Of a stretch of 64,000 bases of DNA, positions 22,113 to 63,557 are shown in pieces. Under the pieces are notes generated by a model that searched no databases, was not told the DNA's origin, and saw only the letters and a list, made by a program, of their open reading frames with translations. Source of the stretch: a phage. Numbering within the stretch: the first letter of the stretch is position 1; every line of letters begins with the position of its first letter. A program made the position numbers and the translations under genes. Location: assembly GCA_025611195.1 (NCBI GenBank), contig GCA_025611195.1_4718.1; one strand, given 5' to 3'.

Positions 22113-22144
22113 CCCTCTCCCTTCCCTTACGGGTTGGGAGAGGG
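22113..22144. terminator. family-A palindromic hairpin at convergent junction
   Basis: Stem CCCTCTCCC/GGGAGAGGG, loop TTCCCTTACGGGTT. Confidence 0.5.
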
Positions 22145-22150
22145 AATATG

Positions 22151-23218
22151 TTAACCCAACGTCACCGTAGGTAAATCGGGATAAAGTTTCTTCAAGCCTG
22201 CCATCGTGGTGGTAGTTGTATAATTCTTACCCATCACGGCAAGAGATGCGTATTTCTTACTGCGTGAGAAAAGGGAATAGAACCCACTGGATGTTTCCAT
22301 CCACATCGTGAGGAGTTCCGCATCATTACCATGATAGTTCGTTTTACCCCATCCGGGTTTAAACGCATCGGCAAAATCAATTAAACGTGATGCTTCAGCG
22401 TCGTATTCTTTAAGAGCGATGTACGACGGAATACGGTAGTTACGAAACAATAACGTAATGAGTTCAGGGACAACGCTACGAGCACGTTCAGCGGTAATAA
22501 GTTCGGTGATGACAGCAGCCGTACGGAAATCGCCGTTAAGGCCAACGCTGCTTAACGATTCCGCTAAAGTGGTCGCCATCGCTACTTTATCTTCCGCTGA
22601 CCCAGAGTCATACAGACTACGTACATCGATATAGTTACCCGCTAATGCAGCCTGACGAATCAACGACGTGACAACCGTCCGGTTCGTCTTATAGTCGTTG
22701 TAGCTGAATTCGGTTCGCGTTTTCCCTTGATCATCGAGATACTGATCAACGATCGTGGACAGCTTATAATACTCATCACCCGACATCAGACTATCGAGAA
22801 GCTTAACGTTTCCATCTTTATCAATAAGCTTCCCTAACGCACCATTGGATTGCTGGTTAATGGTGCTGTAAATCTGGTCTTTTACTTGCGATAGGATGTT
22901 ATCGGTTGACGATATATTCAGGCCTGTAACATCTTTGATCTTATTCATCAATGCGTTTTCATTCAGGGAGATTTTGCCGCCGCTGATATCGATGAAAGAA
23001 TTAAGATCGCTTATGGAAATCAGGTTTCCTGTTAACGCCGATAATGTACTATTGATACTGTTCGTAATACTGCTACGAAAACTGGTTAACGCATCCGCCG
23101 CCGAAACAGCGGTACCGCTAACCGCTTTAAGGAGCGTATCACGCCCTGTCGAAAAATCGCTGGTGATGGTTTTGATCTTGGACGTATCTATACTCGGCAG
23201 TTTGTCGTAAAGACTCAT
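22151..23218 (-). CDS. hypothetical protein (356 aa)
   Basis: Start placed at ATG 23218 (MSLYDKL) preceded by AGGAGG; ORF-track start 23269 lies inside a terminator hairpin. Confidence 0.55.
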   Translation of the reverse strand: MSLYDKLPSIDTSKIKTITSDFSTGRDTLLKAVSGTAVSAADALTSFRSSITNSINSTLSALTGNLISISDLNSFIDISGGKISLNENALMNKIKDVTGLNISSTDNILSQVKDQIYSTINQQSNGALGKLIDKDGNVKLLDSLMSGDEYYKLSTIVDQYLDDQGKTRTEFSYNDYKTNRTVVTSLIRQAALAGNYIDVRSLYDSGSAEDKVAMATTLAESLSSVGLNGDFRTAAVITELITAERARSVVPELITLLFRNYRIPSYIALKEYDAEASRLIDFADAFKPGWGKTNYHGNDAELLTMWMETSSGFYSLFSRSKKYASLAVMGKNYTTTTTMAGLKKLYPDLPTVTLG

Positions 23219-23256
23219 CACGTCCTCCTGAAAAAGAAAAAAGAAATACGGCATAA

Positions 23257-23284
23257 AGCCTACCCACACAATGGTGGGTAGGCT
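23257..23284 (-). terminator. intrinsic terminator
   Basis: Stem AGCCTACCCAC/GTGGGTAGGCT followed on minus strand by a T-rich tract. Confidence 0.55.
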
Positions 23285-23300
23285 AAGATCAACATCGATG

Positions 23301-23813
23301 TTAAACTTCTTCGTTTTCTGAACCTAATGATTCAGCATCTGGATCGTCAACAGGAATTGTTGCATCAAAATACCGTTTCGTGTGCGTGGTTGTATATCCT
23401 ACGCTATCTGTGATGGAAATCGTAAACGTGACTTCTCTTGCACGGATTAAGCGTAGTTTATTCATGAAGTTACGGAACGGCATCGATCCCCGATTCAACT
23501 CCTTAATGACGTTTCCTCGAATACTGGAAATGTCTTTATTCGTTTTATCAGGATGCCGTTTCTTCACATCACGCATATGTCGGGTAATATACGAATTGAG
23601 CTGATTTGCGCCGATCCCTCTCTCCGTATAAATCTGCAACAGGAACTCCGTAAGGAAATCCTGTCTCCCCGTAGGCGTCCAGAAATTGTTACCGTGATTG
23701 TAGTTAGTCGCTCGTCCTCGATTACTTTGAGGATTTTCATCATCGTTTTCGTCACAACGCTTAAGCGGATTAATGCGTGCTCGGAAAGAGACTTCATTAT
23801 ATTTATTTGTCAT
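23301..23813 (-). CDS. hypothetical protein (170 aa)
   Basis: Start ATG (MTNKYN) overlaps stop of upstream gene (ATGA). Confidence 0.5.
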   Translation of the reverse strand: MTNKYNEVSFRARINPLKRCDENDDENPQSNRGRATNYNHGNNFWTPTGRQDFLTEFLLQIYTERGIGANQLNSYITRHMRDVKKRHPDKTNKDISSIRGNVIKELNRGSMPFRNFMNKLRLIRAREVTFTISITDSVGYTTTHTKRYFDATIPVDDPDAESLGSENEEV

Positions 23814-24325
23814 AATACACCAGTGTACTGACTGAGTGCGAAGGTTAGGAGTTCGCAACAGTCTCTCGCTAGTTTCCTTGTTTTGCGTAATCCATAAGCC
23901 GCATCCAAATCGTCACGTTCCGCTAGCGCGTCTAACCACGTCGCAAGTATGCGTCCATACTCGATAACGTCGCGCATGAGAACGTCGAACTGGATAACAC
24001 GACCATCGGCATCAGCAAGCCAACGATTGAATGTGATTTGTGGTGCTAGTATTGCATATGTTCTCTCCTCTAATGCTATTATGTTTATGTTGCCTTCGTT
24101 ATCGAACGCTTGATGCCAACGGCGAAGGTCAAGCATCAACGACTCAGCGTCCATATACCACAACGGTAAATACGTTTTACGCGCAACGCGTATATCGTAG
24201 ATGTTGTGAACCCAGGACGTTGTTTTATAAAGCAACAAGAGTTCGTTTAACCGTTGCCTATCATCTTGAAACGTCTTCCTTTTATAACGTTGGAATGCAC
24301 GCCTCAAGAAAAAGCGATGTAACAT
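23810..24325 (-). CDS. hypothetical protein (171 aa), predicted early gene
   Basis: ORF about 80 nt downstream of a CTATATTACCT motif. Confidence 0.55.
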   Translation of the reverse strand: MLHRFFLRRAFQRYKRKTFQDDRQRLNELLLLYKTTSWVHNIYDIRVARKTYLPLWYMDAESLMLDLRRWHQAFDNEGNINIIALEERTYAILAPQITFNRWLADADGRVIQFDVLMRDVIEYGRILATWLDALAERDDLDAAYGLRKTRKLARDCCELLTFALSQYTGVL

Positions 24326-24406
24326 GGCATCACCTATGTATCATTCTTGCAGGCATCAATGAAACCATCACAAGAAGGTAACGTTATACGTCGCCTTCAT
24401 GACAGT

Positions 24407-24427
24407 CATCATGAAGGTAATATAGTC
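24407..24427 (-). promoter_or_regulatory. early-promoter-like motif (21-nt GACTATATTACCTTCATGATG)
   Basis: Identical 21-mer also at 50903..50923; minus-strand gene start at 24325. Confidence 0.5.
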
Positions 24428-24458
24428 CTGTTATTTTTTTCAATACGGAGAATGTAAA

Positions 24459-25088
24459 ATGAGCGAATACGGTGTTGTCCCCGTAGATGATGAACCGCAA
24501 GAGGCACCCGATAAATTCGAGGTCCGTCTTGACGAAACCCGTAATATCCGTCAACGATTTATTCAACGTCTCGAAATGCTGTTAGATAGCGAATTCAAAG
24601 ATTTTGAGCGTAACCCCGGTGCAGATAATAAAGCCATTGTTGACGTCGAAAACGTCGACCGAATAGGTAAGCTGTTGTTGAAATCGTTGGGTGATAACGA
24701 TAAAGTCGACTTAACGTTAAAACGTATCAGTGCCGACCAGGCTATGAACGACAGCGCATTGAAAACAGCACAGGCCCTAACCGAAACCATGCTGCGCCGC
24801 TTAGGTCAGATGAATGAACATCCTCTCGCAGCAGGGGCTGTTTACGATGGCGAAGTCGTGAAGTCAGTTACGCCTGAAGAACGCGATCGTCGACTTGGTT
24901 TTGCATCGTTGGAAGAGTTTAATAGCAAGGAGTTTTCACCAGGCGTTCTCATACAGGGACGTGTTGAAGAAACCAGTGATGCTTTCTACGCTAGAATGGC
25001 TCAACTGACGGAGTCTGTTCGTGAGGAGGTGTCTCAGAAGATGGTTGCAGATCATCAGTCTTCGGAGGCGTCACACGAGGAGGAATAA
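24459..25088 (+). CDS. acidic hypothetical protein (209 aa)
   Basis: ACGGAG RBS 8 nt upstream of ATG; acidic, Glu-rich C-terminus. Overlaps convergent gene by about 98 bp. Confidence 0.5.
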   Translation: MSEYGVVPVDDEPQEAPDKFEVRLDETRNIRQRFIQRLEMLLDSEFKDFERNPGADNKAIVDVENVDRIGKLLLKSLGDNDKVDLTLKRISADQAMNDSALKTAQALTETMLRRLGQMNEHPLAAGAVYDGEVVKSVTPEERDRRLGFASLEEFNSKEFSPGVLIQGRVEETSDAFYARMAQLTESVREEVSQKMVADHQSSEASHEEE

Positions 25089-25779
25089 AATAACTGAACC
25101 ATTTTATTCCAAAGAACCGCATGAACATCACGGGTGCGTTAGAAAGTTCGATTGCTTCGTAAAGTTTGTCATAAGCCAGATCGGAATCAGGGATGGTTTC
25201 GCTGATTCGTCTGGCTACAACCAACACGTTGCAAATCGGATTGTCTTCTAACAGCATCTGATTGGGGAGATGCCAGCGTTTGAAATCGTAAAAGAACATC
25301 GCATTATACGTCTTACGGATTTCTGATGGATGCAGTGTAGCCGGATGACGATACACAATCTCAACGCTATCTTGCGCGCCGAGGTATTGCTGGATGCCTT
25401 CTTTTAACGCGACAGCGGCATCTCCCACAAATTCAAACGGGTACGTATTCACATGAACCGAAAAATCCGGTGCAGCAATCCCTGTCAAGCGGTCTTTCAT
25501 GTAATCCGCGACCACGTAGCATAATCGCCACATCAACTCCGTCGGAATGCATTTATCGAGAATGGTTTCATCGATATTTGCCAACGCATCCTTAAACTCT
25601 TCGTAAGTATAAGTAACACCCGCCTGCTTCTCCGGCTCCAGGTTATAGGGTCGGTAATGCCATTTCTTCCCCCACTTTCTGATAGCCTCAGGATCCAACG
25701 TTGTTGCTACCGCCATTTCGATATCGAGCAGCGCCTCGAGTTCTACATACACCGTCACTAACGCCGCACTTCCAGTCAT
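24991..25779 (-). CDS. hypothetical protein (262 aa)
   Basis: Long ORF; low-complexity Pro/Ser/Thr C-terminal tail overlaps the convergent plus-strand gene. Confidence 0.5.
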   Translation of the reverse strand: MTGSAALVTVYVELEALLDIEMAVATTLDPEAIRKWGKKWHYRPYNLEPEKQAGVTYTYEEFKDALANIDETILDKCIPTELMWRLCYVVADYMKDRLTGIAAPDFSVHVNTYPFEFVGDAAVALKEGIQQYLGAQDSVEIVYRHPATLHPSEIRKTYNAMFFYDFKRWHLPNQMLLEDNPICNVLVVARRISETIPDSDLAYDKLYEAIELSNAPVMFMRFFGIKWFSYFIPPRVTPPKTDDLQPSSETPPHEQTPSVEPF

Positions 25780-29486: not shown

Positions 29487-30329
29487 ATGCATAAATTTAC
29501 CATTCCTGAAGACCCGATTACACTGCAGACCCTTTGGGATTCACATCGTGCTCTATCAATGGAAGGCTTCGCACAAGACTTCGCTTCGCTTACCGCAGTA
29601 ACGAATCTTCGTAGTATGTTTACTAACGGTAAGAAGTTCGTTACCGATTGGCTTAAAAAACGTGATGTGACGGTTTATCCTAAAGTCTTCGATGACCTCG
29701 ATACCATCTTTAGCAACAACGCTTACAGCGATCTCATTGGGTATCGTGCTTTTATTCCGAATGGTTTAAACGCACCGATGTCAGATTATGTTGTTGCTTT
29801 AACCCAGAGCCTGGATAGCGTAATTGGCACCATCTTGCCCGATTTGGATAAGTTGACCGTAACGTGCGCTAAAGCCGTCAACGACGTTAACTTCCGTCGT
29901 AGTAGTGGTATGGCTCAAACACTACCTAAAAACGATCCAGAGAACGTTCTAGAGACGTTACGTGCGATGTTCAAACGTGGGACGGTAACACAGACCACTG
30001 TAGGTCGTGCATATAAGAACGAAGACGATATCCGTCAAATCGGAAAAGATCTGGATGTTTCCCGTACCCGTGCGCTTGACGTTAATCCTAAAGACGTGAA
30101 GAAGGCAATTGAACGTTTCATGGAGGTGGCTGACCGCTTAACCGAAATCCTGGTTCAAGACTACAATGAAGGTGCGGTGAGCAACGCGATGATTCGCGAT
30201 ATTAGTGACGCTATCTACCAAACAGCCAAGCAGGCTGAACTGTATGCGTTTCTCGTGAACGCTTTGGCTGAGGCGATCACTGCATATAACGACACTTGGG
30301 ACGCTGTTAAAAAGAACGCGAAAAAATAA
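29487..30329 (+). CDS. hypothetical protein (280 aa)
   Basis: GAGGACC RBS; ends just before a large palindromic hairpin. Confidence 0.55.
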   Translation: MHKFTIPEDPITLQTLWDSHRALSMEGFAQDFASLTAVTNLRSMFTNGKKFVTDWLKKRDVTVYPKVFDDLDTIFSNNAYSDLIGYRAFIPNGLNAPMSDYVVALTQSLDSVIGTILPDLDKLTVTCAKAVNDVNFRRSSGMAQTLPKNDPENVLETLRAMFKRGTVTQTTVGRAYKNEDDIRQIGKDLDVSRTRALDVNPKDVKKAIERFMEVADRLTEILVQDYNEGAVSNAMIRDISDAIYQTAKQAELYAFLVNALAEAITAYNDTWDAVKKNAKK

Positions 30330-30337
30330 CATAATAA

Positions 30338-30373
30338 CCCACCCTACTACCCCGTTAAGGGTGGTAGGGTGGG
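30338..30373. terminator. palindromic hairpin at convergent junction
   Basis: 15-bp stem CCCACCCTACTACCC/GGGTGGTAGGGTGGG (one G-U position), loop CGTTAA. Confidence 0.5.
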
Positions 30374-30380
30374 GTAAGGT

Positions 30381-30812
30381 TTATTTGCCGTATAGCTGTA
30401 CCACTCGTTGTGTCGTAGGAACGCAGACTCTTACCAGAAGCTTTTTAATCTCCTGACGAATCGTTGCCTTATCATCATAATAAAGCCATGGCGGAACGCG
30501 CTGCATTATGCACTGCACGGCTTCATCGTAGTTTGTCGTCCCATTAAGTAACGTCTCACTATCCAGATCTTTCCATGCAGTAATACCGAGCCGCGCAGCA
30601 AACATCAACGCTGAAACCGACTCAGCTATCTCCAATCGCTCATTCATATCCGCAAGACCTTTTAGCATGACGTAATTATCATCATGTTGGTGCAGGGTAC
30701 CAAACAAACTTCCGAAGAGAAGTATACGTTTAGCTTTTGCGGTTAAGAGGAACGACAGGAGAGCGTGTTTCAACGGTTGTTTCTCACGTTCTACCTGTTC
30801 GACCATCACCAT
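30381..30812 (-). CDS. hypothetical protein (143 aa)
   Basis: In-frame with upstream ORF, separated by TAA plus one codon. Confidence 0.5.
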   Translation of the reverse strand: MVMVEQVEREKQPLKHALLSFLLTAKAKRILLFGSLFGTLHQHDDNYVMLKGLADMNERLEIAESVSALMFAARLGITAWKDLDSETLLNGTTNYDEAVQCIMQRVPPWLYYDDKATIRQEIKKLLVRVCVPTTQRVVQLYGK

Positions 30813-30815
30813 TGA

Positions 30816-32354
30816 TTACTCCAACACATAACGTGGGTTACTGTATATGTTAGCCCATATACCAACGTCGTCCCCCGACTCAATAATCACGGCAAAACGA
30901 AACGCAACATCAGACTCGCGATATGTTACCGCGTACGCTTTCGTTTCCGGTGATGCTAAATAGCTCAAGTTCAGACGTTGAGGCAGGTCTAACCCCAAGG
31001 ACATGGTACAGGACGTAACACCCTGCTTATCGGGGGTCAGTCTGTAATTCACATCCACCTTCAGGCTTTTCGTAACCTGCGTAATCGCACTATGCACTTT
31101 GGTAACCGTTTTGCCTTTCTTATCCTTTTCTGTTTCGAAAAGAACGTCGGTAATTTCGGTTACGACCAGACGCGGTGTGGATTCGCGGTTAGCGTCAAGC
31201 CATTCATCCAGTAACGTCTTTAAGAAGTTCAAGGAATCAATCGCACGCCAAGCAAGGTTAGGCGGATTGCATGCTTCCATTAAAATGGCTGTGTTCGATC
31301 CACCTAGCGGAAGATGCACGCTCTTACCGAGGCCTGTTGGACGCATCGTAAGATCGCACTCACCCTCAAGAATATCGCGATGATATTGACGATGATGAAG
31401 GTTATCCGTGTATGCAATATACACTGACTCCGTTGTCCCATGCTCTAATACCCGAGATGCATGCGTACGCATAATCTCAATAGCATCATCCGGCTTGCTT
31501 AAATAGATAACACTATACGCGCTATCGCTAATCCTTTTCCCTAACTCAAGACGTCCCTTGTTGTCTTTATCGGTGTTACCACCGAAATAGATATAGCGGC
31601 CATCTTTCGCACGCTCTTGCTGCTGGTTGGTGGTAAAGTAGCAGCGCGAGAACGTAAAGAACGGGCTTATTTCCGGTTCGGGGCTCCAATACCCCTTGGC
31701 CGGAAGTTCGCGACGTATTTGGGTTCTTACAGCCCAGTCCTGGTTTTGTGATAGATATGTTCCACGCGTTGCCAACATATCCGCACGTTCGTTGCCAACA
31801 TTGCCCTCATGTCCAGGAACGTAGCGCAGCGAAATATCGATAGCGTCGCGCTTCGCATCCCTTATCGCACTATCGAGTTTCCGCCACCGTTCCGCATTCA
31901 TTAACGGTTTATTGTCGGATTTAACCCAGTTGTTCTCTCGCCAGTTAGCAAGATGGTTGGTGGCACCCACAACAACATATTGGCTGTCCGACAACAGCTG
32001 GATCCGTTTTGCCCCCTTTGCTTTTCCAAGTTCAATCGCACGTATTGCAGCATCCAACTCAGCCTGATTGTTCGTTACATTGAAACCCAAAGCCTCTAAC
32101 TCATCCACGTATTCCTTGGGTTCGACAAGCACAGCGTCTTTAGGAAAGTTGAGTTTAGGGTCAACATAACCGTATTGTGTTGGTTTGGGCTTTCCACTTT
32201 TTGAAGGTTCCAAGGTGCCTTTTATTTCTTTCACCATATCGTAGGTGTAGCCATGCACGCCATAGCCACCATACCCACTCGATGTTGGACGGGATCCTCC
32301 ATCACAGTAGAAAACGGCACCAAGCTCAGTATTTCCTGCCATTGTAAACCTCAT
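30816..32354 (-). CDS. rnh: RNase HI-domain protein with about 320-aa C-terminal extension
   Basis: N-terminal motifs CDGGSR...GYGGYG, NQAELDAAIRA, LLSDSQYVV and GHEGNVGNERADMLA match RNase H catalytic signatures. Confidence 0.65.
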   Translation of the reverse strand: MRFTMAGNTELGAVFYCDGGSRPTSSGYGGYGVHGYTYDMVKEIKGTLEPSKSGKPKPTQYGYVDPKLNFPKDAVLVEPKEYVDELEALGFNVTNNQAELDAAIRAIELGKAKGAKRIQLLSDSQYVVVGATNHLANWRENNWVKSDNKPLMNAERWRKLDSAIRDAKRDAIDISLRYVPGHEGNVGNERADMLATRGTYLSQNQDWAVRTQIRRELPAKGYWSPEPEISPFFTFSRCYFTTNQQQERAKDGRYIYFGGNTDKDNKGRLELGKRISDSAYSVIYLSKPDDAIEIMRTHASRVLEHGTTESVYIAYTDNLHHRQYHRDILEGECDLTMRPTGLGKSVHLPLGGSNTAILMEACNPPNLAWRAIDSLNFLKTLLDEWLDANRESTPRLVVTEITDVLFETEKDKKGKTVTKVHSAITQVTKSLKVDVNYRLTPDKQGVTSCTMSLGLDLPQRLNLSYLASPETKAYAVTYRESDVAFRFAVIIESGDDVGIWANIYSNPRYVLE

Positions 32355-32392
32355 TAATCATTGTCCGTATGATAGCCCAAAGTTGTACGGTA

Positions 32393-32944
32393 TTACCGAT
32401 TACCGTCAGTTGACGTTGGTTGATTGCGATCGATTTTCATTGACCGTAATTTTCCACCATTAGTTACACACTGATTGCGCTGTTCGACGGAGGTCAGACT
32501 GTTACAGACATAATAAGTATCGATAAAACGCTCAACGCGTTCTTGAAACTTCCTCCCGGCAACTTGCTCTTTTTCAAAAGTTCGTAACGCACGATCGACC
32601 TCACCTTGGAGAATCCGGTTCTGTTCAACCATACTGTCGATTAAACGGCCTCGCACTTCGTTCGATGTATAGAGTTGATGAATCAGTTCTCGGTTGGTGT
32701 CTCGCGCATAGCGCAATGTTGTATTTTCCTGACGTAAACTATTCGCCTCAGCCATCAAGGTAAAGATTTTTTCGCCAGCAAATAACGTCACGATACCCAA
32801 CACGATGAAAAAACCCGTAATCAAGAATATCGAGGACTGTCGAGCTCCATCTCGACGATAGCGTGTGGGTGGTCGCTTACTTCGCCGAAACAACTCGCGA
32901 AGAAAAGGGAAAAGCCAGGGCAACGCCTTGAGTGTAGTAAACAT
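32393..32944 (-). CDS. membrane/coiled-coil protein (about 184 aa)
   Basis: Start placed at ATG 32944 (MFTTLKALPW); hydrophobic segment IFLITGFFIVLGIVTLFAG then Gln/Arg-rich helix. ORF-track start 33235 would overlap the divergent gene. Confidence 0.45.
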   Translation of the reverse strand: MFTTLKALPWLFPFLRELFRRSKRPPTRYRRDGARQSSIFLITGFFIVLGIVTLFAGEKIFTLMAEANSLRQENTTLRYARDTNRELIHQLYTSNEVRGRLIDSMVEQNRILQGEVDRALRTFEKEQVAGRKFQERVERFIDTYYVCNSLTSVEQRNQCVTNGGKLRSMKIDRNQPTSTDGNR

Positions 32945-32998
32945 GCGTGTGTCCTTGATAGTATGAAATTTCCAATACAACTTAACCGAGGACGTCGA

Positions 32999-34339
32999 AT
33001 GATTAGTATTTTTGGTTTTTATACGTACAAAGGGTACGCTAATAACCACCCAAAAACCACGGCGAAATTCGGTGAGTTCAGCCAGCATAGTGCTACGTTC
33101 AGTCGCGAGATCGGCATCTATACCAACACGGCGTACGCACGTACGACCCTGCTGGTATTGAATGCAGAAAACGAAGCTGGTGAAGCACAAACGCTGGATG
33201 ACAACACCGCAAATCAGATTCTTCAGGTTGGTCAATGGTTGCTGGAAAAAGCCTCATCGGGCGAAATCCAGGATGACAGAGACCAGGTTATCAGCTACCT
33301 AAAAGACGACTTCACAACGTATTTGGATTCTATCGACATCCCGACACCCACCACCGATGGGAAAGTCTATCTACCGGCGTGGATCAGTTTCAAGATAACC
33401 GCCACAGGTGATGTTGTCAAGATATGGCTGTCTGATAGCGTATTCCAAAGTCAATATCCAAAATACGAATATGAAGTCGTTCCTCCTGTTCCTAAGGATC
33501 AGTTAGACACCTTCTTCGAAGATCTGGCAACGTTGAAGAAACTGGTTGACAGTCGAAGTAGCGAGAAACTGACCGAAGAAATCAACGAGGTGCGCGACCA
33601 ATTCCCAGACACACAATTGTGGACGAAAACCTATAAAGCGTACGATTACACCGACGATTCGAAATACATCGATACCGATTGGACGGTGATTATCTACGGT
33701 GCAGCAGGTAACAATATTGATAATATCAAGGAGTTCCTGCAAAACTGGATTCTTAGCAATAGTACGCACGGACGCCCAGACTGGGAAATCGTTCTGCCAG
33801 ATCTTTTTATTCCGACAGAACACATCTTCATCCCGATCTGGAACCGTCACAGCGCTCCGGAGATGACCAATCAGGCACGTATCTATAGTCCCATCTTCGA
33901 TGATTCGTTGATGGATACCTACCTGAAAAACTTTGCTGATGGTTACGGTGAAACCGCCGAAGTCCGTAAATCGCTTCAAGCGGTGCCGACGCTATGGCGT
34001 TCGATCGGTTTCTTAAGTGTTGGTAACTCACGTAACCGTGATGGTAAACTTAAGTTCTACGATCGTTGGCCGCAATACGCGCTCATCAGCACAACCAGTA
34101 TTGATATTAACCGCATCGACGACGCGACACGTGAATTCATCACGTTCACTTACGAAATGCTGAAACTGGCGGAATCGCTTACTGAAGACGACCCGGTACC
34201 GTTGGGTTATAGTCGTGTTACGCGTGGTAGCAATAACTTCTTAGCGAAAAGCCACAACGATGTTCAGTATCTCTTCTTAACAAAAGAAGCGTTCCTGAAG
34301 AAAATGCCGGATGAAGCCGACACACCTGTTGGAGGTTGA
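32999..34339 (+). CDS. hypothetical protein (about 447 aa)
   Basis: Start placed at ATG 32999 preceded by GAGGACG; ORF-track start 32963 is in frame. Confidence 0.55.
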   Translation: MISIFGFYTYKGYANNHPKTTAKFGEFSQHSATFSREIGIYTNTAYARTTLLVLNAENEAGEAQTLDDNTANQILQVGQWLLEKASSGEIQDDRDQVISYLKDDFTTYLDSIDIPTPTTDGKVYLPAWISFKITATGDVVKIWLSDSVFQSQYPKYEYEVVPPVPKDQLDTFFEDLATLKKLVDSRSSEKLTEEINEVRDQFPDTQLWTKTYKAYDYTDDSKYIDTDWTVIIYGAAGNNIDNIKEFLQNWILSNSTHGRPDWEIVLPDLFIPTEHIFIPIWNRHSAPEMTNQARIYSPIFDDSLMDTYLKNFADGYGETAEVRKSLQAVPTLWRSIGFLSVGNSRNRDGKLKFYDRWPQYALISTTSIDINRIDDATREFITFTYEMLKLAESLTEDDPVPLGYSRVTRGSNNFLAKSHNDVQYLFLTKEAFLKKMPDEADTPVGG

Positions 34340-34968
34340 TTATGGCTGTAACACGCATGACGCCAAGTCCCGGTGCGGTCGGGGTATTCACAGTATCCGC
34401 GCCGTTCTCCGTTGGTGCGTCAACGCTTTATACCGTTACAGCGTTGCGTAGATTCAGTGAAGTTATTGGTAGCGGAATCGATCTATTTAAGGAACTGTAC
34501 GAACCGTTATCGATAGACAAACCCACATTCGATGCGCATCTCGAAGCGAATGCTTATCTCGTTACGTTGCAACCGGATTACGGTGCGCCCGTACTGGTAC
34601 CCGATACGTATATCACATCGTACCCAAAGAACGATTCATTGCGGTATCGTCGCATTATTCTGGGTATCGATTTCGGGCCTCTTCCTCCAGGTCTTGACCT
34701 TTCGTATTTAACAACAATATTGAAAGGTAAGGCCAGTGATATTCTTGGTGTCGAACCTGAAGTTAAAATAATGGAAATCACTCTCGATGATACCGTTACA
34801 CAGGAACAACATCAGATAAACGAAGCCCGTCGTCAGGCTGCGATAAAAGAGCGAGATACCATTTACGCACGCTGTGAAACGCAAGAGAAGCAGATAACAG
34901 CTTTACTTGCAACCCAAAAGCAACTTATCAAATTGCTTCAGGACGCCGGAATCAATCCGACACCTTAA
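34336..34968 (+). CDS. hypothetical protein (210 aa)
   Basis: 4-nt overlap with upstream gene; followed by tandem hairpins. Confidence 0.5.
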   Translation: MIMAVTRMTPSPGAVGVFTVSAPFSVGASTLYTVTALRRFSEVIGSGIDLFKELYEPLSIDKPTFDAHLEANAYLVTLQPDYGAPVLVPDTYITSYPKNDSLRYRRIILGIDFGPLPPGLDLSYLTTILKGKASDILGVEPEVKIMEITLDDTVTQEQHQINEARRQAAIKERDTIYARCETQEKQITALLATQKQLIKLLQDAGINPTP

Positions 34969-34974
34969 CATATT

Positions 34975-35006
34975 CCCTCCTCCTTCCCTTACGGGTTGGA
35001 GGAGGG
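34975..35006. terminator. family-A palindromic hairpin
   Basis: Stem CCCTCCTCC/GGAGGAGGG, loop TTCCCTTACGGGTT identical to 22122..22135. Confidence 0.5.
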
Positions 35007-35035
35007 TTATGCCGTCAAGCAAAAAAAAAATGATA

Positions 35036-35068
35036 GTCACGGACCCTCCAATGAAGGAGGGTCGTGAC
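35036..35068 (-). terminator. intrinsic terminator (hairpin plus T10)
   Basis: GTCACGGACCCTCC/GGAGGGTCGTGAC stem; A10 at 35021..35030 gives a U10 tract on the minus-strand transcript. Confidence 0.6.
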
Positions 35069-38704: not shown

Positions 38705-39118
38705 ATGTCTGCATTAGTGTATGACGAGAAATCGTCGAGGCCCCCGTCTTCACGAGGGCCAACACCTATGCGCGACTATTTACCATCTACGAAACAAAGG
38801 GTTATAAACATGAGCAATTTGAATGTTGAATTTACTTCAACAACGCCTGTCATGAATGGCGTTGGTACTGAAACCAAGATCGTATTAGAACCCATTCCGG
38901 GGTTACGTGATCTCGGCGATTTTTACCAACTGATGCCACGTATACGGAAAGCCTTAAACAGCATCGATCTCGATTCTGATAAAGATTTCCAACACGATAC
39001 AGAAAATACCGATCATGTGCTGCTACCATCAGGAGTAGCAAAATTCACCTACACGCAAACATTGAAAGCCTCCGATGGTGAAATCCGTCGTTTTATTGTT
39101 GAAGTAGAAAGCGCATAA
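38705..39118 (+). CDS. hypothetical protein (137 aa)
   Basis: ORF; stop codon sits inside the flank of a family-A hairpin. Confidence 0.5.
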   Translation: MSALVYDEKSSRPPSSRGPTPMRDYLPSTKQRVINMSNLNVEFTSTTPVMNGVGTETKIVLEPIPGLRDLGDFYQLMPRIRKALNSIDLDSDKDFQHDTENTDHVLLPSGVAKFTYTQTLKASDGEIRRFIVEVESA

Positions 39119-39122
39119 AAAC

Positions 39123-39154
39123 CATCCTCCCAACCCGTCAGGGAAGGGAGGATG
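39123..39154. terminator. family-A palindromic hairpin (reverse orientation)
   Basis: Stem CATCCTCCC/GGGAGGATG, loop AACCCGTCAGGGAA. Confidence 0.5.
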
Positions 39155-39171
39155 AAATATGCCGTTATATG

Positions 39172-46158: not shown

Positions 46159-46193
46159 CCTCCTTCCCCGGCCTTGGTGGCTAGGGAAGGAGG
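46159..46193. terminator. family-B palindromic hairpin
   Basis: Stem CCTCCTTCCC/GGGAAGGAGG, loop CGGCCTTGGTGGCTA (reverse complement of the loop at 14..28, one mismatch). Confidence 0.5.
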
Positions 46194-50821: not shown

Positions 50822-50902
50822 CTAAAAAAGATCCTCTGTTTTTCACGTTAATTAAACAACGTATTGATTTCTATTTAACGCAATACGAACATTGTACGTA
50901 TG

Positions 50903-50923
50903 CATCATGAAGGTAATATAGTC
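50903..50923 (-). promoter_or_regulatory. early-promoter-like motif (21-nt GACTATATTACCTTCATGATG)
   Basis: About 80 nt upstream of ATG 50821, at the edge of the AT-rich non-coding region. Confidence 0.5.
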
Positions 50924-51064
50924 GTGAAAGGATTTGCATTAAAGCAAGGGTTTTGTTTTAAGAAGGGATGGATTTAGAAGAGGTGTTTCAAGGAAGGTAA
51001 ACGAGGATAGGTATTTTGATTTAAGTAAGATGTTATCTGTATTTGTTAAAAGTGTATTGTCTAT

Positions 51065-51396
51065 GTTATCTTGTTTATCTTAGGTTATGTCTTATTGTTT
51101 AATCGTTTTATCTTTGTAGGTTAAATTGTTCTAGTTATCTTGTTGTATAAAGTAATTCAATAAGCTTATCTTCAAAATGATAAATAACTTGTGTTTATTG
51201 TACATGCTAATCAAAAAACCATTTGTGATACTCTTCTTCACGTTGTTCATCAGAGTATCTCGTCTATACTCATTGCATTCGTATACGACATAACCGTTAT
51301 ACGCTAACGCTACGCTTATAGCTTGATAACTCTAAGGATAAAAACATAAACTCGCTTCGCTCGTTTAGTTTTTCTTTTTCTTAGAGTTATCTTGTT
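51065..51396. repeat. iteron-like direct repeats (A)GTTATCTTGTT(G) in AT-rich non-coding region
   Basis: Three copies at about 51065, 51134 and 51386; no ORF of 60 aa or more in this region. Confidence 0.4.
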
Positions 51397-51557
51397 GCTC
51401 GTCTCTAAAGGACTTCGCTCCTCCCCCGTCCCCCGAAGGGGCCGAGGTCGTGGAAATTTTACTTTCCAAATACATTTACAACATCTGTAAACTTTTACTC
51501 CAGGTACTTAATCTTATCATTAGAAATTATAAAGAGAAGAATAAACACAAACATAAA

Positions 51558-51589
51558 CCTTCCTCCAACCCAACAGGGAAGGAGGAAGG
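51558..51589 (-). terminator. family-A palindromic hairpin
   Basis: Stem CCTTCCTCC/GGAGGAAGG, loop AACCCAACAGGGAA; T-rich tract follows on minus strand. Confidence 0.5.
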
Positions 51590-51602: not shown

Positions 51603-52496
51603 TTATTCGGAAACGTTGTAACCGAATACCGCTTTACCGTAGGTGTGAGTACCGTCAGCTAATGACAGCACCAACACGTGGTTGTACGTAGCGTTAACGC
51701 CTTTATCGGTGGAATCGGTGGTAGCACCGTTATAGACGAAAGTAGCCGTTTGCAGATTGGCTTTCAGCTCGGTGATGATCTCGTCGCCCACACCCGTCTG
51801 CTCTTTGATCAGCGTGGTCAGGTTACCTGCCAGGCTTTCATCGATCTTGGTTTCGTTACTGGTAATCGCCTGTAAACCTGCGGTGTAGGTACTGAAGTCT
51901 AACGGATAGGTTAACAGACGCGCTGAGGTCTTGGTGCCATCGCCTTCATCAACGTAGGTTAAGTTACCCAGGTTGGTAACCTTGATGATGTTGGACAGAT
52001 CCAGCGTGGTGTTATAAACCTTAACTTGAACAGAACCGTACCAAGCCAGCGAATCTTCTTTGGCTTTCAGGGTGATCGTCTGGATACCATGATCGTCGAA
52101 GGTAACCGGCGTAGCTAACGTATCGGCTTTGATGTCTTTCGCTTTATCCAGGAACTTCTCACCGGAAGGTGTGATCATACCGTAGCGTTGAGCTACAAGG
52201 TCAACCACATCACCGATGGTGGTGTTTTTATTAACGTTAACGCGTACGGCGATCTTCTGGAACCACTTAGCCAGATCCAGACGATGATAGGTAACATCGC
52301 GGTCATTGAAGTAAGGAGTACCTTCACCAGGGCTAAGCGTTAAAGTTGCATCTGGAGCAGAATCGCTTTTGGATTTAAGAACGTATTTAAGGTCGGTGGG
52401 TTTGAAGTTGGCACCCGTATCGGCGTTGAGTGTGTTAATCTCATCAACGATAAGTTGCCAAGGTGTTTTTAAAGTAAGTGATACTTGAGCTGTCAT
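51603..52496 (-). CDS. hypothetical structural-type protein (297 aa)
   Basis: N-terminal region homologous to 52643..53185 (YFNDRDVTYHRLDLAKWF vs FYYDRLALSEVF; TIGDVVDLVAQRYGMITPSGE vs SIKASELVSKLVTKFGLASLTGE). Confidence 0.55.
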   Translation of the reverse strand: MTAQVSLTLKTPWQLIVDEINTLNADTGANFKPTDLKYVLKSKSDSAPDATLTLSPGEGTPYFNDRDVTYHRLDLAKWFQKIAVRVNVNKNTTIGDVVDLVAQRYGMITPSGEKFLDKAKDIKADTLATPVTFDDHGIQTITLKAKEDSLAWYGSVQVKVYNTTLDLSNIIKVTNLGNLTYVDEGDGTKTSARLLTYPLDFSTYTAGLQAITSNETKIDESLAGNLTTLIKEQTGVGDEIITELKANLQTATFVYNGATTDSTDKGVNATYNHVLVLSLADGTHTYGKAVFGYNVSE

Positions 52497-53384: not shown

Positions 53385-53416
53385 CCCCTCCTCATCCGTT
53401 ATTGGGTGGGGAGGGG
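53385..53416. terminator. CCTCC-type hairpin in convergent intergenic region
   Basis: CCCCTCC ... GGAGGGG stem in the 290-bp non-coding gap. Confidence 0.35.
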
Positions 53417-59405: not shown

Positions 59406-59409
59406 GCGG

Positions 59410-59919
59410 TTACCCCATGTAACGTTTTTGGCCGAGGATGAAGACTTTGTTAAATACCACCGAAGTGATTCCTGATGCGTTACAGCTTACCTGCCCGACG
59501 CGAATTGCTGTTGACGTATCGACCCCAGCACTACTCTGCCAGCTCCAATCAATCGATCCGTCTTTCTGATGAATGAAAAGATAACCGGTTTTGTTCGCCC
59601 AGTCGGAAGTAAGATTTTTGATGTCTAACGTTCCTTTCGCCAGAATATAGTCGGTACCGGCGATCATGACGGGGATTTCAGGATACGAGATTACCGTACC
59701 GCTAGCGGTAACGTTGCTGATGCGATCACTACGGATATCGGTACAATCACCGAAATACGCTACGGGGAGTATCCCCTTAGGTAGCTTTTTGTCGATTCTC
59801 GTATCGATCGTGCTTTTATCGGGTGCGTCGATTTGCGCTGCAGTGACTTGGTTAGGGTTATCCTTCCTTGCATACCACGTCGTCATGCGAGCACCCAACT
59901 CACTCATTTTTGTGCCCAT
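59410..59919 (-). CDS. short tail-fibre-like protein (about 169 aa)
   Basis: N-terminus RKDNPNQVTAAQ fibre-repeat motif; ORF-track start 59925 is GTG, ATG at 59919 preferred. Confidence 0.5.
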   Translation of the reverse strand: MGTKMSELGARMTTWYARKDNPNQVTAAQIDAPDKSTIDTRIDKKLPKGILPVAYFGDCTDIRSDRISNVTASGTVISYPEIPVMIAGTDYILAKGTLDIKNLTSDWANKTGYLFIHQKDGSIDWSWQSSAGVDTSTAIRVGQVSCNASGITSVVFNKVFILGQKRYMG

Positions 59920-59953
59920 TTTCACGTCCTATCGAAAAATAAAAAGAAGGAAA

Positions 59954-59970
59954 GGTGGGTAGAACCCACC
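59954..59970 (-). terminator. intrinsic terminator after tail-fibre gene
   Basis: GGTGGGT-AGA-ACCCACC followed on minus strand by TTTCCTTCTTTTTATTTTTCG. Confidence 0.55.
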
Positions 59971-59976
59971 CATCCA

Positions 59977-62130
59977 TTATAACGTTTCGAAGTCTTTTGC
60001 CTTGATGACCGCGTTGAAGTTGGCAAGGAATTCCTTAAGTAATGCTTGGAAAACATCGCGGAACGCCGCGTTCGTCTTCAAGCTGGTTAAATAATCGTTC
60101 TTAAGGTAATCACTAAGCTTACCGATCTTCTGCATTGTCACGCCTTCATCGTTCTCTCCGGGTTCCTGGCTATTGATATTAGCCCACTTGATCCCTTCGA
60201 GATCGCCATCAGCAAGGAAGTTAGCTGGCGTCTCATCATCGTTAAGGATTTTGATCGTGTCGCTGGATTCAATACCACCGTAAGCTTCCAGAAGCTGGTT
60301 GACGGTCAACTTATTGACGTTGATTGAACCATTAGCACCATCGATACCGAGTCCGGTACCCGTGATAGACGTTGCTGAAAGATCGATTGGTCCGGTTAAC
60401 TTACCCCCATTGATAGGGAGCGCACCGACTTGTTCGGCTGTGTGCGTGTGATCTGCTAACGCCGCGAACGCTGCAATCGACTTGTAAGTCGAGTACGGTG
60501 TCATGTACGCCGTCTGGTTAGTCCTGTCAGCAGCTTGCACATCGGTGGCGACAGCAAAGTCCTGTACGTTCCCTAACCCCACTTGTACCTTGGTTACTTC
60601 ATGCGGGTTACTCTTATCGACAACGTGTGCTGCAAAACCATCACCTGCTAAAGCGATGATCGCTGCTTTTGTCGCAGCCGGTGTCATATAGCGGTTGGTC
60701 GCTACACCTGTTTGCGCTTCCACATCAGAAGCAACAGGGTAGTTCTCAACACTCCCCAACCCAACCTGGGTTTTCGTTACCCTGTGCGGGTTCTCGGTAT
60801 TTGCGATGTGGCTACTGAACCCTTGACCAGCCATTTGCTCGATCGCGTAACGAACAAGTATTGGTGTCATGTACTTGTTGTTAGCCTGACCGTCGATCGC
60901 TTCTTGGGTAGTAGCAACCCCAAAGTTCTGCACACTTCCCAGACCGACTTGGGCTTTTGTCACCCCATGCGGGTTATTGGTGTTACCGATATGTTCGGTT
61001 ACGGTTGGGGTGATTAACGCTGCGATAGCGGCGGCTGTGGTCGCAGGCGTCATGTATTTGTTGTTAGCAACACCCGCACCAGCTTCCCCATTAGACGCTA
61101 CACCATAGTTCTGTACGTCCCCCAGCCCTACCTGTGCTTTCGTAACAGCATGAGGGTTGTTATTATCCTCGGTATGGGTTGTTAACGTAGCGTTGACATG
61201 ATCGATGCGTGTACTTAAGCCGTCCGTGATTGCCTTGATTGCTGCTCGTACACCCGCTGGAGTCGTGTACAGATTAGTGGCTGTACCGGTAACGGTTGTA
61301 TTATCATCGGCTACACCGTAGTTCTCAACGTCTCCGAGTCCCACCTGGGCTTTGGTCACCTTGTGTGGGTTGTTGCGGTTACTGATGTGTGCGGCGGCAC
61401 TATCACCACTAAGGTTAGCGATCATCTTGCGCGTCATCGCCAACGTCATGTACAGATTTTCACCGACAGTTTCCAGATCGCTCTCAGTCGCTGTTGTGAA
61501 ATTCTGCACATTCCCTAAGCCCACCTGGGCTTTCGTAACGCCGTGGGGATTATCGCGTCGATTCTCATGCTGTACTAACGCAGTCATTGCTTTATTGAAC
61601 CCTTCTTCAAGCGGTTCTTTCAATGACTCGATTGCAGCCACCACATCGTCCCACGTCATTGTGTCGGTTTCGACATTATGTTGGTGGTTGATTGGTGGGA
61701 ATACAGAAGGAACGTCGGCAACCTTTTCCCAGAACGTAACACGAGGATCGTAAAGGTTGTTGGCTAAAACGTTAAGAATTTGTTGTTGATCAAGTGTAAA
61801 CTCACCCCCCAGTGAATAGTAGTTCAGTTGCAACTGTCCACTGAATGCGGTGTCCAACAGCATGATGGAACCGTATAATTCCAGGCCGGTCAGCGCAGCC
61901 ATGGCACGGAAGGGGTGAGTGCATAAAAAGTCAACGCCTTCTTCCAGATACGCGTTTGTTTCAGGGTTGTAGATCTTTAACCCATTACGAAAATAGGGTG
62001 CGTATTTAGGAACGAGAAAGTTAAATCCGGTCCCCGTGGAAGGACGGACAGTGACGAGTTCTTCTGGAACCCATGCGCCATCCAAATTCCCCTGCGGGTT
62101 ATACGGAAGGCGTTTAATTTCATCTGTCAT
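59977..62130 (-). CDS. tail fibre protein with six NPHxVTKAQVGLG repeats
   Basis: Six tandem repeats; N-terminal region similar in layout to 54242..56290; no S74 domain; followed by hairpin plus T-tract. Confidence 0.75.
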   Translation of the reverse strand: MTDEIKRLPYNPQGNLDGAWVPEELVTVRPSTGTGFNFLVPKYAPYFRNGLKIYNPETNAYLEEGVDFLCTHPFRAMAALTGLELYGSIMLLDTAFSGQLQLNYYSLGGEFTLDQQQILNVLANNLYDPRVTFWEKVADVPSVFPPINHQHNVETDTMTWDDVVAAIESLKEPLEEGFNKAMTALVQHENRRDNPHGVTKAQVGLGNVQNFTTATESDLETVGENLYMTLAMTRKMIANLSGDSAAAHISNRNNPHKVTKAQVGLGDVENYGVADDNTTVTGTATNLYTTPAGVRAAIKAITDGLSTRIDHVNATLTTHTEDNNNPHAVTKAQVGLGDVQNYGVASNGEAGAGVANNKYMTPATTAAAIAALITPTVTEHIGNTNNPHGVTKAQVGLGSVQNFGVATTQEAIDGQANNKYMTPILVRYAIEQMAGQGFSSHIANTENPHRVTKTQVGLGSVENYPVASDVEAQTGVATNRYMTPAATKAAIIALAGDGFAAHVVDKSNPHEVTKVQVGLGNVQDFAVATDVQAADRTNQTAYMTPYSTYKSIAAFAALADHTHTAEQVGALPINGGKLTGPIDLSATSITGTGLGIDGANGSINVNKLTVNQLLEAYGGIESSDTIKILNDDETPANFLADGDLEGIKWANINSQEPGENDEGVTMQKIGKLSDYLKNDYLTSLKTNAAFRDVFQALLKEFLANFNAVIKAKDFETL
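60500..61560 (-). repeat. intragenic tandem repeats encoding NPHxVTKAQVGLG modules
   Basis: Six units, homologous at DNA level to those in 54850..55660. Confidence 0.7.
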
Positions 62131-62234
62131 GATGCGCCCTTTACAAGTTGTTAGTAAGTGTGGGATACCCTGGGGTATCCTGTGTTAACAGCGGTAAAAT
62201 ATTACTGTAACTATAAAATAAGGGGGCCTCTCCC

Positions 62235-63515
62235 ATGTATACATTGGTAAAAACTTACGGATTACCCGTAGGTTCCGGCACGGCCTGGACAGCACTTGAG
62301 GCGGGTGAAAGTGTCCTGAGTACGTTGTTCTCAGCGTATCAAAAACTCAAGATCCAGGTTCATGAAAGCTATGCTGACCAGCAACAAGTTATTGATCTGT
62401 ACACATTTCAATCCGAGCTTCAAAACAGCAATGACACGCTCAATGCGTGGTTGAAAGCGAAATCGGATGCGCACACCAACCTTCGAGGACAGCCTGGTGA
62501 GCTGTCGATTAAAACCCACAAGCTTTATTGTCACGACGTTATTACCGTAGGCTTTCTCCCTAAAGTCGGTAATAGCGGTTATCATCCGAGCAACGCGATC
62601 CCTGAGTCGGAACGTACCGATATCCTGTTGACGAAAGCGGATACGAATTACGAAAATATCGGCAAACATTGCTTGTTCACCGTAGGCGGTTATGTTCATC
62701 CTCATGTTTACGGTAAAGACGTCGGTGTCTATATCCAGGGTGGGTTCGAGACAGCACAGCGTAGCCAAGAAAACGATATCGGCATGATTGATTTTAGTCG
62801 TATCGGGAGTTTGGAAATCCACGCTATCACAGAAGAGATGCTTGCTGATTCCACGAAGCTCTTGCCGTATAAGGACGAGATGTACTTACGGCTACCACGC
62901 AAGGTCGCCGAAGATGAAACCGTCGCGCTTGTGTTCGGGGGATATCTACACCTTCTTGACGATTGTTACACGATCGTTAGTGACACGACGGCAAAAATAA
63001 ACTGCAGAAACATGTTTCTGTATGAAAGATACTTCCGCTCCCGCAAATACCTTGATTTAACGTCTCTTGGTATTCTGTTGAACGAAGAAGACCCGCAGTC
63101 CGATATTGTTGCCAATCGTTTACTGTCTGATAAGACTTTAAAAGCATGGGTGACACACCCCTGCAGTTTCTGGGTGTATATCAAAGCAACATCGATTCAG
63201 GTTACACAAGAACCTTTACCACGAAGTGGTGTACCAGGACAATATTTCTTAGGTAAGAAACCGGAAGGACTGATTCGAGCTGACCTCGGTGAGTTACCGG
63301 CTTACGTGCAGACCTATGAAAAACCGTTATGGGTACTTCACTCACGCTGGGGACTTCGTAAGAACATGTTGTTTGAAAACACGTTGTACAAACATACACG
63401 CGTTAAGCGGCTTAACGATACACCTTATCTTCACCAGGTCTGGTTGGAAACGCACGCGACGTTGCAGACAGTACATAAGCTCGAATTGATCGATTCCAGT
63501 CAGAAAAACAAATAA
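62235..63515 (+). CDS. hypothetical protein (426 aa), possibly tail/baseplate-associated
   Basis: ORF divergent from fibre operon; AAGGGGG RBS. Confidence 0.5.
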   Translation: MYTLVKTYGLPVGSGTAWTALEAGESVLSTLFSAYQKLKIQVHESYADQQQVIDLYTFQSELQNSNDTLNAWLKAKSDAHTNLRGQPGELSIKTHKLYCHDVITVGFLPKVGNSGYHPSNAIPESERTDILLTKADTNYENIGKHCLFTVGGYVHPHVYGKDVGVYIQGGFETAQRSQENDIGMIDFSRIGSLEIHAITEEMLADSTKLLPYKDEMYLRLPRKVAEDETVALVFGGYLHLLDDCYTIVSDTTAKINCRNMFLYERYFRSRKYLDLTSLGILLNEEDPQSDIVANRLLSDKTLKAWVTHPCSFWVYIKATSIQVTQEPLPRSGVPGQYFLGKKPEGLIRADLGELPAYVQTYEKPLWVLHSRWGLRKNMLFENTLYKHTRVKRLNDTPYLHQVWLETHATLQTVHKLELIDSSQKNK

Positions 63516-63525
63516 ACAAACATAA

Positions 63526-63557
63526 CCCTCCTCCAACCCATCAGGGAAGGAGGAGGG
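63526..63557. terminator. family-A palindromic hairpin (reverse orientation)
   Basis: Stem CCCTCCTCC/GGAGGAGGG, loop AACCCATCAGGGAA. Confidence 0.5.

Follow-up and report, generated by a model that had tools for sequence, protein, structure and literature searches.

Palindromic two-tier hairpins with a TATG box at gene 3' ends of a Goslar-like jumbo phage: probable bidirectional transcription terminators

Five near-identical palindromic elements, here termed Family A, lie at gene ends in a 64,000-nucleotide stretch of phage DNA (contig GCA_025611195.1_4718.1; below, the window, numbered from its first nucleotide). Each element spans 32 bp and has three parts: a perfect 9-bp pyrimidine arm; a centre of the form (AA or TT)CCC-NNNA-GGG(AA or TT); and a 9-bp purine arm (Table 1). 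The centre reads TTCCC-TNNN-GGGTT in elements 1 and 2 (22113 and 34975) and AACCC-NNNA-GGGAA in elements 3, 4, and 5 (39123, 51558, and 63526). A preliminary description, made from the sequence, had placed five elements at these positions and noted an inner CCC/GGG pair; all five are present there, and the pair is real. Its label of a CCCTCCTCC-type stem is fair, given the types found in elements 1 to 5 (CCCTCTCCC, CCCTCCTCC, CATCCTCCC, CCTTCCTCC, and CCCTCCTCC, respectively). The window holds exactly five members, all with the perfect 9-bp stem and the 14-nt centre, and a relaxed scan of the window revealed no sixth. As also described, elements 1, 2, 3, and 5 occupy junctions between convergent genes; element 4 lies between two minus-strand genes. 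Distances to the neighbouring stop codons are 4–16 nt, except on the minus side of element 2 (70 nt).

Family A is not due to chance. With at most one mismatch allowed, the core pattern has 12 matches in the window versus 3.3 ± 2.0 in shuffled sequences. Complementary arms accompany only five of these, and perfect 9-bp arms add a chance factor of about 4^-9 to each of the five.

A 10-kb piece of the window has a sole match in the phage collection, at 95.5% identity: Escherichia phage vB_EcoM_Goslar (hereafter Goslar), a nucleus-forming jumbo phage of the Chimalliviridae with a 237-kb genome. Window positions 30000–35031 correspond to Goslar 232271–237301, after which the window runs on into the start of the Goslar record. 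Beyond the Goslar-like phages, amino-acid identity in an RNA polymerase β-like subunit falls to only about 40% in the next relatives. Among 2.9 million viral contigs searched with two specific patterns, the Family A core is multicopy in Goslar and in just two other contigs, both Goslar-like; five further Goslar-like contigs (209–249 kb) that carry it, together with fragments, came from a metagenome scan. The preliminary description had proposed a search of related phages and named absence from them as refuting; eight further Goslar-like genomes do contain the elements. Within current sampling, Family A is specific to this genus.

Goslar contains about 16 copies, all intergenic and all at gene 3' ends, and 10 of its roughly 20 convergent junctions carry one. 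In the window, eight of the nine convergent junctions hold a palindromic hairpin with a pyrimidine arm and a purine arm: Family A at four, a second family at two, and singletons at two. (The ninth junction consists of overlapping genes.) This variety of hairpin families suggests that the junction itself is a functional slot. By manual tally, Goslar pyrimidine-arm hairpins have loops of at least 12 nt at 14 of the 16 convergent sites and at 9 of the 14 co-directional ones, a difference too weak to support a claim that long two-tier loops are tied specifically to convergent junctions.

Both strands of the elements are predicted to fold (−22.6 to −31.4 kcal/mol; z of −5.3 to −6.5), the outcome of a check that the preliminary description had proposed. 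The predicted structure is the same on either strand: a 9-bp helix; a 2×2 A·A or U·U internal loop; a 3-bp CCC/GGG helix; and a tetraloop. Where both flanks exist, CAUA:UAUG pairing adds a further helix segment to the prediction, and reversing the loop alters predicted stability by only about 2–3 kcal/mol. Covariation was assessed in an alignment of 32 distinct Family A copies from four genomes. Bases pair in 99.2% of the alignment cells, and five of the nine outer pairs have changed on both sides; stem types number only a handful, so independent compensatory events are few. Neither G-U pairs nor one-sided changes occur in the alignment. The lack of G-U is expected of a hairpin that must fold on both strands, and a DNA-level palindrome predicts likewise. 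All copies (five of five in the window, 32 of 32 distinct ones) have a G+C-rich stem whose 5' arm is pyrimidine-rich and whose 3' arm is purine-rich. Within the tetraloop, three positions vary freely among the 32 copies. The fourth (A beside GGG; T beside CCC on the other strand; alignment A1, column 20) is invariant in all 32, which is unexplained. Rfam families gave zero matches at the gathering threshold across the whole window; sigma-70-like sites were not enriched, and a canonical promoter scan called none of the elements.

The sequences beside the stems are likewise conserved. CATA stands 1–5 nt 5' of the stem in all five window elements, and TATG 1–3 nt 3' of it in four, element 4 having no right-hand TATG; counted by flank and read outward from the stem, TATG lies within 5 nt on nine of ten. 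In Goslar the box has the consensus W-TATG-C/T-Y-G-T-T, read along transcription, with the first T often A on one side. There, 23 of the 30 Family A flanks have a TATG that starts within 8 nt of the stem, with 2 nt the commonest spacing. Pyrimidine-arm hairpins outside the family have one on 12 of 30 flanks and the remaining hairpins on 6 of 84; the genomic background for 10-nt stretches is 1.2%. A broader set of 71 G+C-rich perfect hairpins in Goslar has CATA within 10 nt upstream in 24 cases (background 2.4%) and TATG within 10 nt downstream in 15 (background 1.2%). The box occurs on both sides at eight of ten convergent Goslar sites, and only on the transcribed (minus) side at four of five co-directional minus-strand Goslar sites and at window element 4. 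This distribution indicates that the conserved part is the sequence downstream of the hairpin for an incoming polymerase, the opposite CATA being the box of the other strand. The preliminary description had treated CATAAA and AATATG as extensions of the dyad: the conservation holds, but it belongs to a directional box and not merely to a longer dyad.

Hairpins with a similar downstream sequence have been mapped in other phages. ONT-cappable-seq of phiKZ located 133 terminators, of which 61 share the motif 5'-BCCYCCCCHWWDGGGRRGGBYTTATKYYGT-3' (Putzeys et al. 2024, PMC10914365). The motif comprises a stem-loop followed by a 5'-TTAT-3' region; the study regarded these sites as intrinsic terminators, and convergent phiKZ genes are separated by bidirectional terminator regions in six cases (PMC10914365). 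Phage 201phi2-1 has a resembling motif A (n = 59) and 15 bidirectional transcription termination sites, and eight of its terminators stopped transcription in an in vivo reporter assay (PMC11512511). Our own scan of 50 kb of phiKZ recovered hairpins of the type GCCCTCCC-TTCG-GGGAGGGC-tttatgttgt, and at the convergent junctions 116/117.1, 125/126, and 129/130, CATA and TATG flank the hairpin on its two sides. In Erwinia phage Ea35-70, whose RNA polymerase β subunit is about 40% identical, junction Ea357_159/160 is orthologous to that of element 1 and contains a simple hairpin with a leading purine arm, AGGAGAGGGC-AAAC-GCCCTCTCCT, with CATA and CTATGCCGT on its two sides. These comparisons point to a hairpin-plus-box signal conserved across distant chimalliviruses in which the hairpin is free to change, Family A being the hairpin of the Goslar lineage. 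(The Ea35-70 junction hairpins at L129 2316–2339 and 11145–11168, place the purine arm first, the reverse of Goslar and phiKZ, and keep the CATA and TATG boxes; arm order is thus no universal rule of this terminator class.)

Family A elements are probably factor-independent bidirectional transcription terminators for the phage's own multisubunit RNA polymerases, with a protective 3' hairpin left on the RNA. The preliminary description had proposed bidirectional terminators or 3'-end signals, and that proposal is now the best supported: the arm design and the box are shared with phiKZ and 201phi2-1; half of the Goslar convergent junctions carry the element; and the box tracks transcription. The Goslar ortholog of element 5 is annotated as a terminator.

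In the proposed mechanism, a polymerase arriving from either side would transcribe the pyrimidine arm, the centre, and the purine arm, and the RNA would fold into the two-tier hairpin. The W-TATG-C/T-Y-G-T box, reached 1–3 nt later, would stand in for the bacterial U-tract. With palindromic arms and a box on each side, one element could halt both converging transcription units. The stop would be intrinsic termination by the phage polymerases; RNA 3' ends would form at the element, and the hairpin would then shield them.

How the box might act through the polymerase is suggested by promoter recognition in phiKZ. The phiKZ non-virion RNA polymerase (nvRNAP) reads late promoters through the 4-nt TATG, with the start at G, and a pocket of the β-like subunit gp123 holds this TATG in single-stranded, non-template form (Yakunina 2015, PMC4666361; PMC12809450). 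The Goslar homolog of gp123, Goslar_00039, is 24% identical overall; 8 of 14 named pocket residues are identical, and two more are aromatic swaps. One option is that non-template TATG would be captured in this late-promoter pocket, causing the polymerase to pause. A simpler option is that the box would provide a weak A/U hybrid (UAU). Two points stand against the capture step: in the transcribing complex the phiKZ pocket is reportedly incomplete, and the box runs on as C/T-Y-G-T, which is absent from late promoters. The preliminary description had suggested recognition by a phage factor. With TATG in the conserved flank, that factor may plausibly be the polymerase itself; for the centre, a loop-specific factor is not favoured. 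(ChmC is unsupported as a loop-binding factor: in PhiPA3, eCLIP gave no motif for its binding, and the enriched sites lay near start codons instead of 3' ends.)

Several observations weigh against termination. A scan for T-run terminators found a U-run (at least 5 T in 8 nt) after the stem on neither strand of any of the five elements. The plus-strand flank AAUAUG departs from the UUAU of phiKZ, and Goslar site 174267 has the box on neither side. The directional pattern of the box rests on low counts (one-sided Fisher p of about 0.05, by our own arithmetic). Only 2 of the 16 Goslar copies carry a terminator annotation. The literature searched contained no Term-seq or ONT-cappable-seq study of Goslar, and the Goslar RNA-seq data were analysed per gene only (bioRxiv 10.1101/2023.09.20.558163). 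Moreover, the mapped phiKZ 3' ends do not separate termination from processing.

Window and Goslar agree at 94.2% of positions in the 200-nt flanks (5.8% divergence). The arms and AACCC/GGGAA segments show no differences in 140 positions (P = 0.0016), and the tetraloops differ at 6 of 20 (P = 2e-4). Among nine genomes compared, the 14-nt centre is inverted at most orthologous sites while arms and flanks remain collinear. Both orientations occur at Goslar sites 4149, 48107, 61009, 63715, 97885, 174267, 224384, and 237246, and, in a metagenome fragment, at site 93445; element 1, for example, has TTCCCTTACGGGTT in the window versus AACCCGTGAGGGAA in Goslar. Certain tetraloops recur at many sites (GTAA, GTCA, GTGA, ATCA, AACA, and AGCA). 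AACA and GTAA differ at three of four positions, yet AACA is found at six sites, and the arms of site 93445 differ between genomes on both sides (CCCTCTCCC vs CCCTCCTCC). Independent mutation cannot account for these observations. Copy-to-copy gene conversion, in either orientation via the palindromic arms, likely explains the pattern of loops and arms, and in-situ hairpin-mediated inversion may contribute as well. Recent spread, the other explanation raised in the preliminary description, is thereby supported.

Loop orientation itself was rejected as a functional determinant: it flips freely and does not follow the transcribed strand, and is therefore probably neutral. Other terminator-like Goslar hairpins have the same two-tier layout with different sequences (TA-GCC-GTCAA-GGC-CG, TA-CCC-ATAAC-GGG-CG, and CA-CC-CGAA-GG-TA). 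It therefore seems that the layout is under selection, or is at any rate tolerated, and that the particular AACCC sequence is a matter of inheritance. Common descent plus gene conversion between copies accounts better for the invariant AACCC..GGGAA centre than a loop-specific factor does. (Among the matches listed, many AT-rich unrelated IMG/VR contigs, L008–L057, contain hairpins of sequence CCCCCC-AA-CCC-AAAA-GGG-AA-GGGGGG, accompanied by A-runs on one strand and by T-runs on the opposite one. The same layout in apparent U-tract terminators of unrelated phages could reflect convergence or a generally favoured design.)

A bolder proposal joins these strands: termination in nucleus-forming jumbo phages may be sequence-specific, the nvRNAP pocket that reads late promoters also catching the TATG after the hairpin, and the ensuing pause letting the hairpin free the transcript. 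A single TATG word would then mark both starts and stops, according to context, and the terminators would also be recombination-active palindromes that exchange and flip their centres among about 16 copies, possibly often enough to be visible within one lysate. That both parts hold is doubtful.

Other roles can be set against termination. The elements might be RNA processing or stability signals: polymerase would read through, and mRNA ends would be set afterwards by a cut from RNase III or a phage nuclease, or by a block to a 3' exonuclease. The predicted folds extend via CAUA:UAUG into an interrupted three-segment helix of about 16 bp with two 2×2 internal loops, an RNase III-like shape (interrupted hairpins between T7 genes serve as RNase III sites), and the missing U-tract and the ambiguity of mapped 3' ends between termination and trimming count in favour of processing too. 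However, co-directional sites (element 4 and those in Goslar) keep only the downstream box and have no upstream CAUA partner, so it is not the extended helix that is conserved; in addition, the phiKZ counterparts were classed as intrinsic terminators, and those of 201phi2-1 worked in the reporter assay. Processing, the main rival, is accordingly unlikely. The TATG box also invites a reading as a promoter module, in which TATG is an nvRNAP start, the palindrome aids DNA opening, and outward transcripts are antisense or serve the next gene. TATG is the essential late-promoter core of phiKZ with its start at G, the pocket residues are retained well above the overall identity of the Goslar homolog (8 of 14 identical versus 24%), and antisense RNAs are reported in phiKZ. 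The placement is wrong for promoters, however: in each of the four convergent window elements, the two TATGs are directed into the 3' end of the opposing gene, and over 730 nt separate element 4 from the next gene. The box ATG of Goslar 49776 is an annotated start codon, and a start at G could not express that gene. Furthermore, phiKZ late promoters are unconserved past TATG, whereas Family A boxes continue as C/T-Y-G-T. A promoter role is very improbable.

The palindromes might act as cruciforms or hairpins that are recombination hot spots, or as protein-binding or replication signals, any effect on transcription being secondary. They are perfect at the DNA level, free of G-U-type asymmetry, and the inverted centres and moving loop variants bespeak DNA-level exchange. 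Yet placement is strictly at gene 3' ends, and the directional box follows the transcribed strand; Ea35-70 fills the same junction with a different hairpin sequence; and arm sequences vary with pairing kept, unlike the target of a sequence-specific dimeric DNA binder. A DNA-level role is quite improbable, if less so than the promoter. Least probable of all is that these are selfish palindromic repeats, like repetitive extragenic palindromic (REP) sequences or miniature inverted-repeat transposable elements (MITEs), spread through intergenic DNA without function. Such repeats would be multicopy, near-identical, intergenic, confined to one genus, and subject to concerted evolution, as Family A is. 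But presence/absence polymorphism, the mark of a mobile repeat, is not seen: each of the five window sites is matched by an ortholog in Goslar, and the nine genomes have most of the Goslar sites in common. The arms and inner helix have zero substitutions against the 5.8% flank divergence, and enrichment at convergent junctions and the directional box also speak for function.

One translational reading was rejected as a general function. The purine arm and box could form a Shine-Dalgarno sequence and start codon (GGAGGAGGG-AAT-ATG), but the window ATGs open frames of only 6–8 codons or face the opposing gene. Goslar 49776 is the only Family A site whose box ATG coincides with an annotated start. 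At this site (49776–49807 in L004), the minus-side ATG begins Goslar_00047 (62 aa), and the purine arm lies at the Shine-Dalgarno position. Goslar_00047 is either a spurious gene call or a gene whose ribosome-binding site is sequestered by the terminator hairpin.

Related features are included in Table 1. Family "B", the second multicopy family, has 10–11-bp CCTCCTTCCC-type arms and the centre TAGCC-AYCAA-GGCCG; it resembles Family A in its two-tier design and centre flipping. Its window copies at 3–39 and 46159–46193 have oppositely oriented centres, and Goslar copies lie at 11186, 84366, and 200229.

Downstream of element 4 on the minus strand is a 736-bp non-coding gap (50822–51557; 32% GC). 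It holds three copies of a 20-nt TTGTTCTAGTTATCTTGTTG-like repeat (51057, 51126, and 51378), further ATGTTATCT copies, and a C/G-rich stretch at about 51416–51446. Its Goslar counterpart, 14972–15777, is likewise unannotated. The gap is a candidate origin, cluster of promoters, or locus for a non-coding RNA.

Past element 2, window 35017–35063 contains a poly-A run (A10; A17 in Goslar) and a second hairpin. The Goslar GenBank record is cut open inside this run, with about 56 nt, including half of element 2, present at both ends.

The gene for the RNA polymerase β-like subunit (11348–13036, minus strand) is a single uninterrupted open reading frame (ORF) of 562 aa in the window. The Goslar ortholog is split by a group I intron with an HNH/NUMOD ORF (Goslar_00229/00230). 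A tblastn search of Goslar with the window protein aligns residues 1–503 at 100% and breaks thereafter, and an Rfam scan of the whole window found no group I intron. The window phage carries an intron-less allele.

Table 1. Positions of the Family A hairpins, their boxes, and related hairpins in the window
Feature	Position	Strand	Sequence and context
Element 1 hairpin	22113..22144		CCCTCTCCC TTCCCTTACGGGTT GGGAGAGGG; between + gene end 22096 and - gene end 22151
Element 1 box, minus transcripts	22102..22111	-	GTTTATGCAGT on - strand; CATAAA on +
Element 1 box, plus transcripts	22146..22154	+	ATATGTTAA
Element 2 hairpin	34975..35006		CCCTCCTCC TTCCCTTACGGGTT GGAGGAGGG; between + gene end 34968 and - gene end 35077
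Element 2 box, minus transcripts	34965..34973	-	AATATGTTAA on - strand; overlaps stop codon of + gene
Element 2 box, plus transcripts	35007..35015	+	TTATGCCGT; exact match to phiKZ TTATKYYGT
Second hairpin after element 2	35042-35063		GACCCTCC AATGAA GGAGGGTC
Element 3 hairpin	39123..39154		CATCCTCCC AACCCGTCAGGGAA GGGAGGATG; between + gene end 39118 and - thymidylate kinase gene end 39172
Element 3 box, minus transcripts	39110..39121	-	GTTTTTATGCGC on - strand
Element 3 box, plus transcripts	39157..39166	+	ATATGCCGTT
Element 4 hairpin	51558..51589	-	CCTTCCTCC AACCCAACAGGGAA GGAGGAAGG; 13 nt past - gene 51603..52496; co-directional
Element 4 single box	51546..51557	-	TTTATGTTTGTG on transcribed strand; none on + side
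Element 5 hairpin	63526..63557		CCCTCCTCC AACCCATCAGGGAA GGAGGAGGG; between + gene end 63515 and - gene end 63567
Element 5 box, minus transcripts	63515..63525	-	TTATGTTTGTT on - strand
Element 5 box, plus transcripts	63559..63567	+	ATATGTTGT
Related variant, internal loop closed	2629..2654		CCTCCTTACCC ACAT GGGTAAGGAGG; perfect 11-bp stem
Family "B" hairpin	46159..46193		CCTCCTTCCC CGGCCTTGGTGGCTA GGGAAGGAGG; convergent junction 46135/46209; same functional class
Same-class hairpin	53385..53416		CCCCTCCTC ATCCGTTATTGGGT GGGGAGGGG; 8/9 pairs; convergent junction 53185/53480; Goslar annotation "terminator"

Chimalliviruses transcribe within a protein nucleus using two non-canonical polymerases, and we know of no termination factor in these phages. 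If the proposed role is true, a hairpin plus TATGCYGT common to phages of E. coli, Erwinia, and Pseudomonas would represent a polymerase-intrinsic stop for the whole family, providing a testable link between promoter recognition and termination and compact two-way insulators for engineering such phages. Annotation would gain as well: 14 of the 16 Goslar copies now have no terminator label. The flipping, inter-converting loops offer a clear natural case of concerted evolution in viral regulatory hairpins. To our knowledge, neither a box shared with the late-promoter word TATG nor frequent flipping and conversion of centres is described in the literature searched.

Comparison with known systems helps to place these elements. 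The late-promoter core of the phiKZ nvRNAP is the same tetranucleotide, TATG, on the non-template strand. The Family A TATG differs in lying 3' of a hairpin at gene 3' ends, in continuing as C/T-Y-G-T, and in pointing away from any usable gene at convergent junctions.

Flip-flop inversions, known from plastid non-coding DNA, affect hairpin-loop spacers between short inverted repeats. Family A is similar in that the spacer occurs in both orientations among close relatives, with arms and flanks collinear. It is distinct in that a single family has about 16 copies scattered over a phage genome, with loop variants exchanged between copies.

Bacterial bidirectional rho-independent terminators likewise place one palindromic hairpin between convergent genes to serve both strands. 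Family A has the stable G+C-rich hairpin on both strands, but the U-run is missing: instead of an A-tract/U-tract pair there is the TATG box. (From phiKZ biology, host RNA polymerase and Rho presumably are not the enzymes involved.)

The closest likeness is to the phiKZ and 201phi2-1 motif. Shared features include the G+C-rich hairpin, whose arms are pyrimidine (5') and purine (3'); TTATG-YY-GT, 1–3 nt after the stem, in place of a U-run (the Goslar-type TTATGCYGT being an instance of TTATKYYGT); intergenic position after stop codons, with two-way use between convergent genes; and a chimallivirus host genome transcribed by its own RNA polymerases. Family A differs in its strictly palindromic 9-bp stem, in one flank that is usually AATATG rather than TTATG, and in its restriction to Goslar-like genomes, where it is known from sequence. 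Moreover, a 14-nt centre (2×2 AA/AA or UU/UU loop, CCC/GGG helix, and tetraloop) replaces the short 4-nt HWWD loop. Most likely, then, these elements are a genus-specific two-tier variant of the known chimallivirus terminator class.

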